Assembly: GCA_021325135.1 (NCBI GenBank)
Contig: JAJPHT010000026.1
Coordinates: 56,094 to 120,093 of the forward strand
Source of the DNA: Pseudomonadota bacterium
Lineage (GTDB): Archaea > Thermoplasmatota > SW-10-69-26 > JACQPN01 > JAJPHT01
Length of the DNA: 64,000 nucleotides
Reading direction: 5' to 3'
Numbering within the stretch: the stretch's first letter is position 1; each line of letters begins with the position of its first letter. A model generated the notes under the pieces. That model searched no databases, was not told the DNA's origin, and saw only the letters and a list, made by a program, of their open reading frames with translations. The position numbers and the translations under genes were made by a program. Below are positions 53,396 through 59,261 of the stretch, one piece after another.

Positions 53396-54715
53396 ATGCG
53401 CGTGTCCCTCCTGGCGAGCCCCCTTCGCCTCGGCGCGCGGGAGGCCAAGAACCGCCTCTACCGCGCCCCCGTGCTGGAGGTCGCCGGGAACGGGCCCGAC
53501 GCCGCGCGCATCCTCCGCCGCGAATTGGAGCCCAGCGCCGCCTCCGGGTGCGGCCTCGTCTTCCAGGGCGCGTGCCTCGTCACGCCCGAAGGGGGCCGCA
53601 GCGCGCCGGGGCTCTCCCGGGTCCACGACCGCGCGTTCGTCCTCTCGCTGCGCCCCGCGGTGGAGGCGGTGAAGGCCCACGGCGCCCTGCTCCTCATGCA
53701 ACTGGGCCACGGCGGGCTCCAGACCATGGAGCTGTGGCACCACGCCTACCGCCAGGAGCATCCGGACCTCGCGACGCTGGCCGTGAGCGAGCCCCCCTGG
53801 TGGATGAAGGCGCTCTCGCCTCTCCTCGACCTCTCGCGCGTGCGGGTGATGACGGACGACGAGCTTCGCGCGCTGGCCGAGGCGTTCGGCGCGGCGGCGT
53901 CCCACGCGGCGGAGGCGGGCTACGACGGCGTGCATCTTGCCGGCGCCAACGGCAGCGTCTTCCAGCAGTGCTGGAGCCCCGTGTTCAACAAACGGACGGA
54001 CGCCTTCGGCGGGCCCACGCTGCGCGACCGCTCCACGTTCTTCCGCCTGGTGGTGGAGGCCATCCGCCGGCGCACGCCGCGGGATTTCCTCCTCACGACG
54101 AAGGTGCCCGCCGAGACGGAGGCGCCCTTCTTCGTGCGCGATGCGCTCAGCCTCGACGAGGGCGCGCAGATCGCGCGCATCGCGCAGGACGCGGGCGTCG
54201 ACGCCGTGGCGCCCGTGCGCGTGGGCGTGACGCGCGACCAGGCCACCGCAAGGGGCGCGTTTCCCGAGATCGCGTGGAGCGACCCGCGCTGGCAGAAGGG
54301 GTACGACGCCGCGTTCGGCCGCGCGAGGAAGCACGCGGTCAAGGCCGCGAACCGCGTCGCGGCGAAGGCGATCCCCTTCGAGCCCGCGTGGAACGCCGCC
54401 TTCTGCCGTGCCGTGAAGCGCGAGGTCTCCATCCCCGTGCTCTGCGAGGGGGGCCTCCGCGAGAAGGCCGAGATGGAGCGCCTGCTGGGGAGCGGCGCCT
54501 GCGACATGGTGGGGATGGCGCGCCCCTTCTACGCGGAGCCGCGCCTCGCGTGGCGCCTGCTGCACGAAGACGAGGACGCGCGCCTCCTCTGCGAGTCGTG
54601 CAACAACTGCACGATCCCCCAGGTCACCGGAGCGCCGGGCGTGTGCCGCACGCCGGAGATCCTGGCGAAGCGCGGAGAGATGATGAAGCGCGGGGCCTAC
54701 GGGCCCCGCGAGTGA
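53396..54715 (+). CDS. NADH:flavin oxidoreductase (OYE family)
   Basis: KNRLYRAP, QLGHGG, AGYDGVHL, NKRTDAFGG, MARPFYAEP, CESCNNC. Confidence 0.9.
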   Translation: MRVSLLASPLRLGAREAKNRLYRAPVLEVAGNGPDAARILRRELEPSAASGCGLVFQGACLVTPEGGRSAPGLSRVHDRAFVLSLRPAVEAVKAHGALLLMQLGHGGLQTMELWHHAYRQEHPDLATLAVSEPPWWMKALSPLLDLSRVRVMTDDELRALAEAFGAAASHAAEAGYDGVHLAGANGSVFQQCWSPVFNKRTDAFGGPTLRDRSTFFRLVVEAIRRRTPRDFLLTTKVPAETEAPFFVRDALSLDEGAQIARIAQDAGVDAVAPVRVGVTRDQATARGAFPEIAWSDPRWQKGYDAAFGRARKHAVKAANRVAAKAIPFEPAWNAAFCRAVKREVSIPVLCEGGLREKAEMERLLGSGACDMVGMARPFYAEPRLAWRLLHEDEDARLLCESCNNCTIPQVTGAPGVCRTPEILAKRGEMMKRGAYGPRE

Positions 54716-54724
54716 GCCCGCGGC

Positions 54725-55228
54725 TCAGAACGTGACGTGGCAGATGCCGCTGCTGCAGACCGCCGTGGGCTCGACGTAGCCCGAGGGCACGCCCACGGTG
54801 GTGGGGCCCGAGGTGATGACCGGCTCGATGGCCGTGACGCACTCCGTGCCCACGACGCAGACCTGCTTGCTCACGAGGCCGCCGTATCCGACGGGGACCT
54901 GCTGCGAGCCGCCGTTGAGGGAGACGCACGCGTTGGTGAGCGCGTCGGGGTTGTAGTCGAAGCACGTGCTGACGGGGCCGACGGGGGGAACCGTGGCCTT
55001 CCCGATGGTGACGCTCCGGACCGTCGTGCACCAGCTGCCGTCGATGCTGCACTTCTCCACCGTGTAGGTCGTGCTGCCGTCGGGGTTCGAGCGCTCGTCG
55101 ATGGTCGGGATGAGGGGCGTGTCGCACGCGTTGCCCAGCGAGCCGCACGGGTCGGCCGCGGAGGCGGCGGGGACAATCGCCAGCATCGCCGAGGCGACGA
55201 GGAGGGTGGCCAGAAGGATCTTGGTCAT
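54725..55228 (-). CDS. Secreted 10-Cys paralog A of tandem array
   Basis: Signal peptide; YNPDALTNAC, VCVVGTEC, PSGYVEPTAVC..CHVTF shared with neighbours. Confidence 0.82.
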   Translation of the reverse strand: MTKILLATLLVASAMLAIVPAASAADPCGSLGNACDTPLIPTIDERSNPDGSTTYTVEKCSIDGSWCTTVRSVTIGKATVPPVGPVSTCFDYNPDALTNACVSLNGGSQQVPVGYGGLVSKQVCVVGTECVTAIEPVITSGPTTVGVPSGYVEPTAVCSSGICHVTF

Positions 55229-55306
55229 GGTTGGAAGCCTCTTGCCCTTGTCGGGCGAGGCCGCGATGTCGCCCCGAGGGGATGACTTCAGGGGATCAAC
55301 TGCTTG
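55229..55306 (-). promoter_or_regulatory. Conserved upstream motif, copy A
   Basis: CAAGCAGTTGATCCCCTGAAGTC...GCCC GACAA GGGCAAGAGGCTTCCAACC-ATG. Confidence 0.75.
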
Positions 55307-55358
55307 CAGGAAAGGAGGGCCTGCCGCCGGGCGTTGCGCGGCGGCAGGCCCGGCGCGC

Positions 55359-55859
55359 TCAGAAGCTCACGTGGCAGAGGCTGCTGCTGCACACGGCGGT
55401 GGGCTCGACGTAGCCCGAGGGCGCGGGGACCGTGGTCGGGCCGCCGGTCACGACGGGCGTGGGCACGGTCTCGCACACGGGGCCCACGACGCAGACGGTG
55501 GTGCTGGAGAGGGGGCCGAGGCCCACGGGCGCGGAGACCGAGCCGCCCGTCGTCTGCACGCAGGCGTTGGTGAGCGCCGAGGGGTTGTACGCGAAGCAGG
55601 TGGAGGGCACGGCGGGGACGTTGATGGAGTCGTCCTGGCAGCCGCCCTGGAAGTTGCACGTCTCCAGCGTCACGGTCTCGCCGCCGTTCGCGTTGGGCGA
55701 TTCGTGGATGCCGTTGGGGACGAGGTACGCCTCGCACACGCCGTCCTGGATGGCGTTGCACACCGCGGGGGGCAGGTGGGGGGAGAGAGCCGCCGCGGAG
55801 GGCGCCAGCGCGAGGAGCAGGGACGCGAGAAGGAGCGCAGGGGGAGCGAGCTTGGTCAT
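55359..55859 (-). CDS. Secreted 10-Cys paralog B
   Basis: Same motifs as A; ends CHVSF. Confidence 0.82.
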   Translation of the reverse strand: MTKLAPPALLLASLLLALAPSAAALSPHLPPAVCNAIQDGVCEAYLVPNGIHESPNANGGETVTLETCNFQGGCQDDSINVPAVPSTCFAYNPSALTNACVQTTGGSVSAPVGLGPLSSTTVCVVGPVCETVPTPVVTGGPTTVPAPSGYVEPTAVCSSSLCHVSF

Positions 55860-55937
55860 GGTGGAAGCCTCTTGCCCGGATCGGGCGAGCAGAGAAGCCC
55901 GGTCCGGGAGATGGCTTCTGGGGATCGAACGCTTTCG
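55860..55937 (-). promoter_or_regulatory. Conserved upstream motif, copy B
   Basis: CGAAAGCGTTCGATCCCCAGAAGCC...GCCCG ATC CGGGCAAGAGGCTTCCACC-ATG. Confidence 0.75.
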
Positions 55938-55988
55938 CAGGAGACCAGAAAAGAAGCGCCTTGCCGCGAGGCGGCGCTGCGGCGCAGC

Positions 55989-56029
55989 AAAAAAAATGAG
56001 GTTCCAGGAGGCGAGCCCCCTGGAACCTC
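55989..56029 (-). terminator. Hairpin plus T-tract after paralog C
   Basis: GAGGTTCCAGG...CCTGGAACCTC hairpin (REP-like GGCGAGCC core) followed by T8 on the minus strand. Confidence 0.6.
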
Positions 56030-56045
56030 CTCTTCTGCGGTGGCC

Positions 56046-56534
56046 TCAGAACGTCACGTGGCAGACGCCGCTGCTGCAGACGGCCGTCGGCTCGACGTAG
56101 CCGGAGGGGAGGGGGACGTAGGTGGGGCCCGAGGTGATGACGGGCTCGATGGCCGTGACGCACTCGGTGCCGACGACGCAGACGGGCTTGCTCACGAGGC
56201 CGCCGTAGCCCACGGGGACCGCGACGGAGCTGCCCGTGGTCTGGACGCACGCGTTGGTCAGCGCGTCGGGGTTGTACGGGATGCAGGTGCCGTCGGGGAC
56301 GGGCACGGGCGGGTTCACGGTGCGGGTGTTGGTGCGGCACCAGCCGTCGACGTTGCACGTGTCGAAGGTGATGGTGTAGCTGCCGTCGGCGTTCTTCTGC
56401 GCGCCCATGTTGCCGGGGAAGACGTAGATGGTGCAGAGCTTGCTTTCGACGTCGCAGGTGTCGGCGGAGGCGGCGGGGACGAGCGCCGTCAGCGCCATGG
56501 CGACGAGCAGCGCGGCGGGGATCAGCTTGTGCAT
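56046..56534 (-). CDS. Secreted 10-Cys paralog C
   Basis: MHKLIPAALL...; C-terminal half nearly identical to paralog A. Confidence 0.82.
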   Translation of the reverse strand: MHKLIPAALLVAMALTALVPAASADTCDVESKLCTIYVFPGNMGAQKNADGSYTITFDTCNVDGWCRTNTRTVNPPVPVPDGTCIPYNPDALTNACVQTTGSSVAVPVGYGGLVSKPVCVVGTECVTAIEPVITSGPTYVPLPSGYVEPTAVCSSGVCHVTF

Positions 56535-56615
56535 GTTGGAAGCCTCTTGCCCGGAGACCGGGCAAGAGGCCCAACCGAGGGGCTGGAGATGTCCTCTAGG
56601 GATCAACCGCTTTCG
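56535..56615 (-). promoter_or_regulatory. Conserved upstream motif, copy C
   Basis: CGAAAGCGGTTGATCCCTAGAGG...GCCTCTTGCCCGG TCT CCGGGCAAGAGGC TTCCAAC-ATG. Confidence 0.78.
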
Positions 56616-56625
56616 GGGGCGATCC

Positions 56626-57129
56626 TCAGAGGGTCACGCGGCACGGGGTGGGGCAGAGCGCGGTGATCTCGACGTAGCCCGAAGGGGCGGGCTCGGTGGT
56701 GGGGCCGCTCGTGACGGAGGGCACGGGGGCGCTCACGCACTCGGGGCCGACGACGCAGACGTTCTCCGTCGCGAGGCCGACGCCCACGGGGGCCGACACC
56801 GACCCGCCCGTCGTCTGCACGCACGCGTTGGTGAGCGCGTCGGGGTTGTACGCGAAGCAGGTGGAGGGCACGAGGCTCGCGGGGGCGGGGATCGTGACGC
56901 TGCGGGAGGGCCACGAGCACCAGCCGTTGATGCTGCACTCGTCGTAGGTCACGGTGTGGCTGCCGTCGGGGTTGGTCGTGACGTGCTCGTGCTCGGGGAT
57001 GACGTACTCGTTGCAGAGGAACTGCTCAAGGTCGCACACGGTGGGCGTGGGCGGGATCGCGGCCGCGGTGGGCAGGAGCGCCAGGAGGGCGGACGCCAGC
57101 AGGAGGAGGGTGGGGATCGTCTTGCGCAT
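56626..57129 (-). CDS. Secreted 10-Cys paralog D
   Basis: MRKTIPTLLL...; central and C-terminal parts most like paralog B. Confidence 0.82.
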   Translation of the reverse strand: MRKTIPTLLLLASALLALLPTAAAIPPTPTVCDLEQFLCNEYVIPEHEHVTTNPDGSHTVTYDECSINGWCSWPSRSVTIPAPASLVPSTCFAYNPDALTNACVQTTGGSVSAPVGVGLATENVCVVGPECVSAPVPSVTSGPTTEPAPSGYVEITALCPTPCRVTL

Positions 57130-57207
57130 GGGGGAAGCCTCTTGCCCGGATCGGGCAGGGCAGCAGCCGGCAGGCGAGGGAAGCCTTCTAGGGATCAACC
57201 GCTTTCG
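57130..57207 (-). promoter_or_regulatory. Conserved upstream motif, copy D
   Basis: CGAAAGCGGTTGATCCCTAGAAGG...TGCCCG ATC CGGGCAAGAGGCTTCCCCC-ATG. Confidence 0.78.
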
Positions 57208-57212
57208 CGGCC

Positions 57213-59261
57213 TCAGACGCGCAGGCGCACCAGCTCGCCGCGCGCGACGGCGTCCATCACGCGCTCGCCCGCGTCGCTGCCGCGGCTGATGCGGATCTCC
57301 CCCTTGCCGCCGATGGTGGCGGTCATGACGGGCTCGTCCTCGATCACGACCTCGGCGCGCGTGCCCACGAGGCCGCGGTCCACCAGGAGGACGACGTTCT
57401 TCTTGCTGCGGCGAAGCTCGGGCACGATCTCCGCGTAGCGGCGCTCCTTCCCGCGCGAGGCGATGCGCTCCTCCTCGGCGGCCATCTCCTCGTCGTCCTC
57501 GGCCTCGGCGTCCGCGGGCGCCTCGCGCCTCAGGGGGCGGTCAGGATCGAAACGCCCTTTTCCCTTGCCGCCACCACCATATTCCTTCGGGCTCTTCCCG
57601 CGGCCCGCGTCCCATCCGCTGCGGCTGGTCATGGGCCTGATGTCGAGCTTCACGCCCACGGCCTCCTCGATCTGCTTGACGTTGCTGCCCCCCTTGCCGA
57701 TGAGGGCGGGCACGTCGCGCTCGGGTACGTAGAGCGTGGCGCTCCCGTCGCTGCTCATCTCCACGTCGAAGGGGCCGTCCACCCAGCGGCGCAGGCTGCT
57801 GCGGAGCCCTTCGGCGGCGAACTTGTCCTTGGCGCTGGTCTTCCCGCCGCTGGCGGCGTCCAGGGGCATGACGACGACCTGCTCGCCGTAGGTGTAGATC
57901 TCGAAGCAGGCCTGCTTGGTGAGGAAGTCGCGCACGACGATGACGGGGCGCGCGAGGTCGGCCTCCACCATGCCGGCGGGCACCTTCACGGTGAAGTTCA
58001 TCTCCAGGACCTGCTGGACCTTGCCCTTCTCGATGTGGATGACGGTGTCCACGACCTGTGGGATCATGCCAAGCTCGACGCGGCCGATGAGGCGCTGCAC
58101 GGCGTCGATGGCGCGGTTCGCGTGCGTGACGCCCACGAGGCCGACGCCGGCGAGGCGCATGTCGGCGAAGATTTCGAAGTCCTCGGTCTTGCGCACTTCA
58201 TCGTAGATGACGTAGTCGGGGCGCACCAGGAGGAGCACGTCGCTGGTCAGCTCCATGTCGCGCTCCAGCGGGGCGTATTGCGTGATCTCGTCGCTGACCT
58301 GGAGGTCGCGGGGGCTTTCCATGGTCTTGATGATGACCTGCTTCTGGCGCAGCCACTCGGCGACGGCGGTGACGAAGGTGGATTTGCCGCTGCCGGGCGC
58401 GCCCGAGACGAAGACGCCTCGCTGGTAGTCCGCGAGGCGGTCGCGAAGCTCGTCCGCGATGTGGTACTGCTCCAGCGTCAGTTGCGCGACGGGCCTCACC
58501 GCGGTGATCTCCACGGCGTCGCTGAAGGGGGGCTGCGCGATGGCGATGCGCATGTTGCCCAGCTGCACCACCGTCGCGCCCTCGCGTTCGATCTCGATGA
58601 AGGAGTCCGCGTCGCGCTTGGCGGCCTCGATGATCTCGCGGCGCATGCGCGTCAGCTCGCGAAGCTCCATGGGCTTCTCGGAGAGCTTGACCAGCTTCTT
58701 CCCGGCCGGCGTGCCCTTCTTCGCCATGGGGACGACGTTCTGCTTGAGGTGGACGCTCATGGTCTCCTTGTCGAAGAACTCCATGATGCGCAGGCTCCCG
58801 ATGTCGGCCTCCCACTCCTTGGGGTCCGTGACGGGGCGGATCCACTCCACGTCGAGGCCCAGCGCGCGGGCGACGTGCGCCTGCACGCGGTCGCTGGTGA
58901 GGAGCGTGGCCTTGTGGTCCACCGCCACCTGGCGGATCATGGCGTCGATCTCGCCCGCCTTGGCCATCTCGATGGCCTCGAAGCCGGGGCGGTCCCCCAC
59001 GAACTCCAGGTGGATGTCCGCGGCGTCCTTCAGCTCCTGGAGCTTCACCACCTCGTCCAGGCCGCTGAAGCCGCTCTCGCGTCCGCGGTTCGCCTGGAAC
59101 TCCAGCTCGGCGACGCTGGCGTTGGCGATGAGGATGCGCGCCCCCTCCAGCTCGCCCCGCTGGATGCGCGCGGTGAGGCGCCCGTCCACGAGGACGCTGG
59201 TGTCCGGGACGACGGACGCGGGTTCCTTGCGCTTCGGGGGAGCCTTCTTCGCCGGGGGCAC
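57213..59261 (-). CDS. PINA-type ATPase (PIN domain, P-loop ATPase, KH domain)
   Basis: VPDTSVLVDG, FFDKETMSVHLK, GAPGSGKST, TMESPRDLQ, DEVRK, DMRLAGVG, LIGKGGSN (KH). Confidence 0.93.
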   Translation of the reverse strand: MPPAKKAPPKRKEPASVVPDTSVLVDGRLTARIQRGELEGARILIANASVAELEFQANRGRESGFSGLDEVVKLQELKDAADIHLEFVGDRPGFEAIEMAKAGEIDAMIRQVAVDHKATLLTSDRVQAHVARALGLDVEWIRPVTDPKEWEADIGSLRIMEFFDKETMSVHLKQNVVPMAKKGTPAGKKLVKLSEKPMELRELTRMRREIIEAAKRDADSFIEIEREGATVVQLGNMRIAIAQPPFSDAVEITAVRPVAQLTLEQYHIADELRDRLADYQRGVFVSGAPGSGKSTFVTAVAEWLRQKQVIIKTMESPRDLQVSDEITQYAPLERDMELTSDVLLLVRPDYVIYDEVRKTEDFEIFADMRLAGVGLVGVTHANRAIDAVQRLIGRVELGMIPQVVDTVIHIEKGKVQQVLEMNFTVKVPAGMVEADLARPVIVVRDFLTKQACFEIYTYGEQVVVMPLDAASGGKTSAKDKFAAEGLRSSLRRWVDGPFDVEMSSDGSATLYVPERDVPALIGKGGSNVKQIEEAVGVKLDIRPMTSRSGWDAGRGKSPKEYGGGGKGKGRFDPDRPLRREAPADAEAEDDEEMAAEEERIASRGKERRYAEIVPELRRSKKNVVLLVDRGLVGTRAEVVIEDEPVMTATIGGKGEIRISRGSDAGERVMDAVARGELVRLRV

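Follow-up and report, generated by a model that had tools for sequence, protein, structure and literature searches.

Here we describe the leaders of a small gene array from an uncultured soil archaeon (archaeal assembly of 3.77 Mb in 51 contigs, 72% G+C). The window, by which we mean the whole 64,000-nucleotide (nt) stretch of contig JAJPHT010000026.1 that was analysed, has a G+C content of 70-77% and contains four paralogous genes, A to D, arranged head to tail and all on the minus strand. Each gene is preceded by a leader made up of a conserved 5′ block, a variable middle, and a conserved 3′ block with a hairpin and a Shine-Dalgarno sequence (SD), GAGG. Read along the minus strand, the features of the array are as follows (aa, amino acids):

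57177-57207, minus strand: 5′ block of leader D (CGAAAGCGGTTGATCCCTAGAAGGCTTCC...), a putative core promoter/operator that starts 6 nt past the stop codon of the PIN-ATPase-KH gene
57133-57156, minus strand: 3′ block of leader D (TGCCCG-ATC-CGGGCA, then AGAGGCTTCC with the SD GAGG at -12, then CCC-ATG)
56626-57129, minus strand: gene D, 167 aa, secreted and cysteine-rich
56585-56615, minus strand: 5′ block of leader C, with no terminator separating it from gene D
56538-56569, minus strand: 3′ block of leader C, a perfect 12-13-bp hairpin that covers the SD wholly
56046-56534, minus strand: gene C, 162 aa
55947-56029, minus strand: two terminator-like hairpins with T-runs in the gap between gene C and leader B (a 14-bp stem with T8, and a 5-bp stem with CTTCTTTTCT)
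55907-55937, minus strand: 5′ block of leader B, the variant GCGTTCGATCCCC
55863-55886, minus strand: 3′ block of leader B (GCCCG-ATC-CGGGC plus AAGAGGCTTCC)
55359-55859, minus strand: gene B, 166 aa
55317-55351, minus strand: 12-bp GC hairpin followed by TCCTTTCC in the gap between gene B and leader A, terminator-like with a weaker T-run
55278-55308, minus strand: 5′ block of leader A (TGCAAGCAGTTGATCCCC), the most diverged copy
55233-55256, minus strand: 3′ block of leader A (GCCC-GACAA-GGGC, lengthened by CCTC/GAGG over an AA bulge), with the SD paired
54725-55228, minus strand: gene A, 167 aa

We found the shared two-block leader before all four genes (A, B, C, and D). As the initial annotation had claimed, the 15-mer GGGCAAGAGGCTTCC is invariant: it is exact in 4/4 leaders (55233, 55863, 56538, and 57133) and lies 4 nt 5′ of the ATG in A and 3 nt in B to D. 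The chance expectation for this 15-mer with at most two mismatches is 0.28 in the whole window, and a scan of the whole 3.77-Mb genome found the four array copies to be its only occurrences with 0-1 mismatch in a matching context. GATCCC lies at the near-constant distance that had been described, 67-70 nt 5′ of the ATG in 4/4 copies. The GCCC(G)/(C)GGGC hairpin is likewise present in 4/4 copies and reaches 13 bp in copy C. The general pattern of letters that had been proposed also stood, with two corrections: copy B has TTCGATCCC, not GTTGATCCC, and copy A has TGCAAGCAG, not CGAAAGCGG.

Pairwise identity among the four leaders is 78% in the 5′ block, 88% in the 3′ block, and 100% in the 15-mer. 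The middle, which had been described as variable, is 34% identical. At the 4-fold degenerate sites of the array paralogs, identity is 58-72%, compared to 53% expected from composition, and the invariant run of 15 nt in the leader compares with a longest invariant coding run of 12 nt. The initial annotation had named conservation no higher than that of synonymous sites as the result that would speak against it. We found instead that the leader blocks exceed the near-saturated 4-fold sites. The near saturation of both the leader middle and the 4-fold sites shows that selection acts on both blocks, and therefore the element is functional. A gene-conversion tract is not the cause of the similarity, since the loop and the 3-4-nt spacer beside the 15-mer differ between copies. 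We also considered a coding leader and rejected it: a frame that runs open upstream as far as an in-frame TTG exists in C and D alone, and A departs by 1 nt in its spacing to the ATG. Thus, the varying frame and ATG spacing of the copies show that the leader is noncoding. In a search of 15 genomes of the order, the array and both blocks proved private to this one.

The 5′ block spans about 31-35 nt with the consensus CGAAAG-CGKTYGATCCC-YWGARG-nCATCYCC and holds a GATCCC ... CATCYCC direct repeat with a period of 12-13 nt. In the four leaders, CGAAAG, which resembles a B-recognition element (BRE), marks the exact point at which conservation sets in, just past the terminators (before A and B) or the stop codon (before D). 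Upstream of the 5′ block we found no sequence or promoter common to the leaders. A profile built from the four copies alone found the 5′ block before a further gene at C36:21550 (E = 0.0014), which encodes an 813-aa exported protein with seven CARDB domains. The next best match, C23:97937, is 22/26 identical to copy B and has E = 1.9 genome-wide; with a profile including the C36 copy, its E value is 0.01 among 797 signal-peptide upstream regions. The gene behind this box (C23:97996) encodes a 536-aa regulator with an ectodomain, a transmembrane segment, and a double winged helix-turn-helix (wHTH). Both boxes lie 47-49 nt 5′ of the start codon, and both are without a 3′ block. The two leader blocks are independent modules, and since no 3′ block accompanies the C36 and C23 sites, a GAAG:CTTC helix between the blocks cannot explain why the 5′ block is retained. 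Homologs of the C23 regulator in related genomes lack the 5′-block box.

We compared the 5′ block with the archaeal core promoter, which consists of a BRE, a TATA box, and a proximal element and has been mapped in Thermococcus, Haloferax, and Sulfolobus (e.g., PMC5316973). The assembly contains the corresponding factors, one TBP gene (with two repeats) and three TFB genes. In this genome the tRNA genes and leaderless genes carry A-N3-TCAAATAGGG, the box lying 29 nt upstream of the start. Like such a promoter, the leader has a purine-rich BRE-like element, then a box that precedes the predicted start by about 29 nt, and then an A/T-containing stretch ahead of that start. The BRE-like element, with an A about 4 nt before the TATA slot, is CGAAAG in B, C, and D and TGCAAG in A; at the same position, the tRNA and leaderless promoters of the genome have A at 0.89. 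At 55-70 nt upstream of the start codon, the distant paralogs of the array genes and their homologs outside this genome have TTGAATAGG, TTCATAACC, TTCATCACC, or GTTATG. TTGATCCC of the array, 68-71 nt before the start codon, occupies the slot of the canonical TATA boxes of the paralogs. The 5′ block is also present in one copy per gene, right past a terminator. Unlike such a promoter, the leader has a GC-rich TATA slot (TTGATCC or YAGAAG) that fails the TATA matrix of the genome, and about 33 nt are conserved as one unit in only six genes. The related weak boxes TTCATCC and TTCATGC do serve tRNA genes.

Because the 5′ block occurs independently, sits in the TATA slot of the paralogs, and begins to be conserved just after terminators or a stop codon, we read it as a putative promoter/operator acting at the DNA level. 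That about 33 nt form a unit in only six genes points to a need for a regulator or for one of the three TFB paralogs. It is thus plausible that the block holds an embedded regulator site or depends on a particular TFB. If the TATA slot is TGATCC, the predicted start lies at -39 to -42; if it is YAGAAG, the start lies at -32 to -35. In both geometries the GAAG, at -59 to -62, precedes all predicted starts (-31 to -42).

Three observations concern other promoter-proximal sequences. Most secreted-protein genes of the genome (e.g., on G000:C23, C38, and C40) have cgAAcg-CTTATC 29-32 nt 5′ of the ATG when leaderless and farther away when a leader is present. In the distant paralogs, a palindrome, GCAGGG-W4-CCCTGC, lies 6 nt 5′ of TTGAATAG, both in this genome (L044:480-520 and 1345-1385, from G000:C21) and on a contig of another sample (L052:258-290, from a JGI metagenome); it is a conserved operator distinct from the GATCCC box. 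Within the array, GGTTGATCC (57191-57199, 56599-56607, and 55292-55300, minus strand) is the complement of the 16S 3′ end GGTGATCC plus one extra T. This likeness is probably a coincidence, because copy B and the C36 and C23 sites have GTTCGATCC.

In the 3′ block of the array leaders, GAGG lies at -12/-13, which is the genome-wide SD peak. The GCCC(G)/(C)GGGC hairpin folds in 4/4 copies; its extension covers GAGG in A and C and part of GAGG in D. We found a 4-13-bp stem in 13/13 family leaders examined (8 from this genome and 5 from other metagenomes), and in 13/13 the stem ends 0-6 nt before, or overlaps, GAGG or GGAG. The non-array leaders (C21a, C21b, C36b, C6, and L051-L055) each have a 5-13-bp stem, every one with a different sequence. 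Structure is therefore kept over sequence: ten lineages (5 in this genome and 5 in other metagenomes) have ten different stems. Local folding energy is -16.8 kcal/mol in the ten family lineages; the value for 275 further signal-peptide genes led by an SD is -10.4 kcal/mol (Mann-Whitney p = 3.6e-5). About 6-8% of genes have a perfect stem of at least 5 bp at the SD-adjacent place, a rate not above that of shuffled sequence, and outside the family we found no genome-wide enrichment of hairpins next to the SD (15 observed versus 11.7 +/- 3.6 in shuffles). Thus, the combination of hairpin and SD is specific to the family.

In five of the six family members with a canonical TATA box, the predicted start, 29 nt past the box, is at most 1 nt away from the 5′ base of the stem. 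For the array leaders, the predicted start is 0-3 nt off the stem base with the YAGAAG slot and 4-10 nt off with the TGATCC slot. Because TATA plus 29 meets the stem base, the stem-loop is predicted to lie at the extreme 5′ end of the mRNA with the SD right after it. Since pairing is kept while sequence is not, we infer that the stem acts in RNA. A strand test (sense versus antisense folding and G-U count) was tried and proved uninformative on RNA versus a DNA palindrome.

This anatomy resembles that of the bacterial 5′ stabilisers that combine a stem-loop with a ribosome-binding site (RBS), the ompA 5′ untranslated region (5′UTR) of E. coli and the aprE leader of B. subtilis, as these are described in PMC3997798 (citing Emory 1992 and Hambraeus 2002). 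As in that account, the array stem-loop is at the predicted 5′ end of the mRNA, a strong SD is next to it, the genes encode abundant exported proteins, and it is the structure of the stem, rather than its sequence, that the family conserves. Unlike the stabilisers described there, some array copies have the SD inside the stem. A further difference is that the host is archaeal. Archaea possess 5′-3′ exoribonucleases of the aRNase J/aCPSF2 type (PMC7144898, PMC3792030), and decay would use aRNase J/aCPSF-type 5′-3′ exonucleases (PMC7144898), not RNase E or J1. By anatomy the array leaders would belong to the stabiliser class, with the function predicted.

Part of the 15-mer, GAGGCTTCC, is common even to the distant paralogs. 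We considered extended pairing with the anti-SD as the reason for the 15-nt invariance and rejected it: the 16S 3′ end GGATCACCTCCT, taken from same-genus and same-family genomes, pairs only with GAGG. The metagenome-assembled genome itself has no 16S rRNA gene. Among 186 SD-led signal-peptide genes, C follows GAGG in 59%, and GAGGCTT is the commonest 7-mer (24/186); this preference for C is not explained by the canonical 16S 3′ end GGATCACCTCCT either. Elsewhere in the genome, outside the window (G000:C23:40880-40990), and in L014 (G004:C84), a canonical TTTATA box is followed about 25 nt on by GGGCAAGAGGCTTTCGTTCC..., an element conserved between two genomes of the genus. The element resembles the beginning of a small gene for a structured RNA; its match to the leader 15-mer at 14/15 nt seems to be due to chance.

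Taken together, we consider it probable that the conserved stretch consists of an unusual promoter and, downstream of it, a short mRNA leader that carries a hairpin and an RBS, that is, a set of selected, ordinary expression signals and not a riboswitch. Every array gene would keep its own expression cassette of two separate modules. The first module, the 5′ block, would act as DNA. It would be a core promoter with the BRE-like CGAAAG and a GC-rich, noncanonical TATA slot, either TTGATCC or YAGAAG 6-7 nt further on, to which TBP and TFB would bind; a regulator site is probably embedded in the block. Transcription would start 31-42 nt before the ATG, within or just past the variable middle. GATCCC and GAAG would then be outside the RNA, because the predicted start lies downstream of both. 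The second module, the 3′ block, would be the 5′UTR of the mRNA, with a GC-rich stem-loop at or a few nt from the 5′ end. The stem would directly precede the SD at -12/-13; in A and C it would also pair with GAGG, and in D with part of it. Its most likely role would be to set mRNA lifetime and translation initiation, as the bacterial stabilisers do. The initial annotation had offered a BRE, a noncanonical TATA box, and an RBS hairpin as one of its two readings. The outline of that proposal agrees with CGAAAG, the TATA slot of the paralogs, the terminators, and the family-wide hairpin with GAGG; the score on the TATA matrix of the genome does not agree with it. The leader has two mildly unusual features on a real, selected, and ordinary class of signal.

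Several observations weigh against this interpretation. On the genome's own TATA matrix the best leader scores are -3 to -8 bits, versus at least 12 bits for canonical boxes, and the scores of the 5′ block reach only the 93rd-98th percentile. The two promoter geometries, with the TBP site at TTGATCC or at YAGAAG, fit about equally, and the transcription start sites of the array are predictions only. In 14 genomes of the same order we found neither the 15-mer nor the 5′ block at a noncoding, gene-proximal site; the matches were coding or due to chance. Within the array we found no compensatory change, the extended hairpin included; there is no covariation because the 3′ arm never varies. The family stems comprise 108 G-C, 23 A-U, and 5 G-U pairs overall, and the antisense strand folds equally well. 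The hairpins of the four copies range in stability from -17 to -34 kcal/mol, the latter being the perfect 13-bp stem of C, and whether the SD is masked or free differs among family members (it lies outside the stem in C21b, C36b, C6, and L055). Because stem stability and SD masking vary in this way, no single precise function is obvious. Finally, the invariance of all 15 nt, including the CTTCC after the SD, exceeds what an SD and a stem need.

This last point also bears on a different explanation of the 3′ block, that it is a regulatory switch: a hairpin that masks the SD until temperature, a trans-acting small RNA, or an RNA-binding protein specific for GGGCAAGAGGCTTCC opens it. The 15-nt invariance, which is more than an SD and a stem require, would fit such a switch, as would an SD that is paired in two copies (A and C) and in part in a third (D). 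For a methanogen, Methanolobus psychrophilus, stem-loops that mask the RBS have been predicted in longer 5′UTRs (PMC5378194). In the pairing of GAGG in these copies, the array leaders resemble SD-masking hairpins and RNA thermometers such as ROSE and fourU. However, the SD of a thermometer lies in a marginally stable, mismatched stem, and we found no such stem in the array leaders: their stems are long and GC-rich and lack the typical weak or mismatched pairs. The stem stabilities of the copies are 17 kcal/mol apart, and the 13-bp GC stem of C is far too stable for a thermometer. Masking is not family-wide either; because the SD lies outside the stem in C21b, C36b, C6, and L055, it is not a conserved feature. 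The scan of the genome with the 15-mer motif yielded no small-RNA partner, and no search was made beyond that scan. We therefore regard a regulatory switch as unlikely.

An alternative for the 5′ block is that it is a transcription-factor site only and that the true promoter has another location, such as a more distant upstream site that gives a long leader processed afterwards. The poor scores of the block on the TATA matrix are what this would predict. So is the conservation of a block of about 33 nt, more than a BRE and a TATA box would take up, with an internal GATCCC ... CATCYCC repeat, and one of the genes that carry the 5′ block is itself a wHTH regulator gene. However, nothing is shared upstream of the block, where terminators or a stop codon adjoin it, and the slot that it occupies is the TATA slot of the paralogs. 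This explanation also overlaps the promoter-plus-hairpin interpretation, which allows an embedded operator. On balance, a transcription-factor site without a promoter is doubtful, and somewhat more so than the regulatory switch.

The other reading offered by the initial annotation was a riboswitch-like RNA in which the whole leader of about 75 nt is transcribed and a three-way junction, formed by a P1 helix (GAAGYC:GGCUUC), a variable hairpin, and the GCCC/GGGC hairpin, senses a ligand and covers the SD. Like riboswitches in Rfam, the array has a conserved noncoding leader before the start codon with a hairpin that touches the SD. On paper, 91.7% of P1 cells pair, GCCC/GGGC is kept in 4/4 copies, and the blocks are conserved beyond neutral expectation. 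We found, however, that P1 is present in the minimum-energy fold of copy B alone; the best folds of the other three copies do not include it. There are 0 compensatory pairs, and P1 position 5 is C, U, A, or G opposite an invariant G. Thus, the junction did not hold up beyond its pairing potential on paper. The fold z-scores of the copies are inconsistent (-1.4, -3.9, -4.8, and +0.6), and P1 and the hairpin extension compete for the same G's. A cmscan search of 54600-57400 against Rfam 15 (E <= 10) found no riboswitch family; its only matches were one to ctRNA_p42d (27 of 50 bits), at a terminator hairpin, and two due to chance outside the leaders. Unlike riboswitches, the array leader has no covarying multihelix aptamer and no metabolic gene context, the downstream genes encoding secreted proteins of unknown function. 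Its upstream half is DNA-like and occurs independently, standing without a 3′ partner before two other genes and in the TATA slot of the paralogs. The GAAG strand of P1 lies upstream of every predicted start, and no conserved promoter is found 5′ of the block, which terminators abut. A riboswitch is therefore very improbable here.

The remaining explanation, that the leaders have no function and that their similarity is left over from recent tandem duplication or gene conversion, is hardly credible: although the array genes are tandem paralogs, blocks of 78-100% identity contrast with a 34% middle and near-saturated 4-fold sites, the loop and spacer flanking the 15-mer differ, unlike in a conversion tract, and the stem-loop with SD recurs in homologs from other organisms.

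The array proteins (162-167 aa) have a signal peptide and ten conserved cysteines and share 54-66% mutual identity. They matched no family in Pfam. An AlphaFold2 model of an array protein is all-beta (pLDDT 67), and Foldseek with this model found no fold match in the PDB. A word search of 5.8 billion proteins matched only the array itself, and a scan of genome contigs found no relatives. An exhaustive profile search of 1.8 billion proteins found 49 representatives, which makes this a rare family; its distant members include four paralogs elsewhere in the genome and five homologs from other metagenomes. Family members (P0004-P0051) share a C-terminal module, CF-YNP-ALTNACV ... VCV-G-ECV ... GYVEAT-LC ... 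C-VTL, and have NxDGS-T repeats in variable number in the N-terminal part. Upstream of leader D, the gene at 57213-59261 (minus strand) encodes a 682-aa protein with PIN, PilT/T2SSE-type ATPase, and KH domains, and no terminator lies in the 6 nt between its stop codon and the leader. On contig C23, the double-wHTH regulator is divergent from two small secreted, cysteine-containing proteins (L020:547-1476, i.e., G000:C23:97046-97975, minus strand); one has 126 aa, and the other begins MRSSIVLAAL... inside a 309-aa open frame.

A more far-reaching model can be built on the promoter-plus-hairpin interpretation, and we offer it as a speculation that has the odds against it. The GATCCC box would define a TATA-poor, regulator-dependent promoter class private to this organism and would be read by the double-wHTH regulator C23:97996 or by one TFB paralog. 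An outside signal would in this way switch on the polymorphic secreted-protein array together with the CARDB surface protein. The family-wide 5′-terminal stem-loop and SD would be the archaeal counterpart of a bacterial 5′ mRNA stabiliser, acting against aRNase J-type decay.

These results remove a riboswitch candidate and put two testable elements in its place. They also hold a lesson for annotation: the conserved leaders of tandem paralog arrays should be tested against the promoters of the paralogs before RNA-switch models are considered. Control of mRNA stability or translation by 5′UTR structure is little documented in Archaea, and this protein family offers a natural experimental series, with ten different stems at the same position. 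For the organism, a small regulon with an atypical, GC-rich promoter/operator would inform how promoters function where TATA is scarce and how a very large secretome is controlled.

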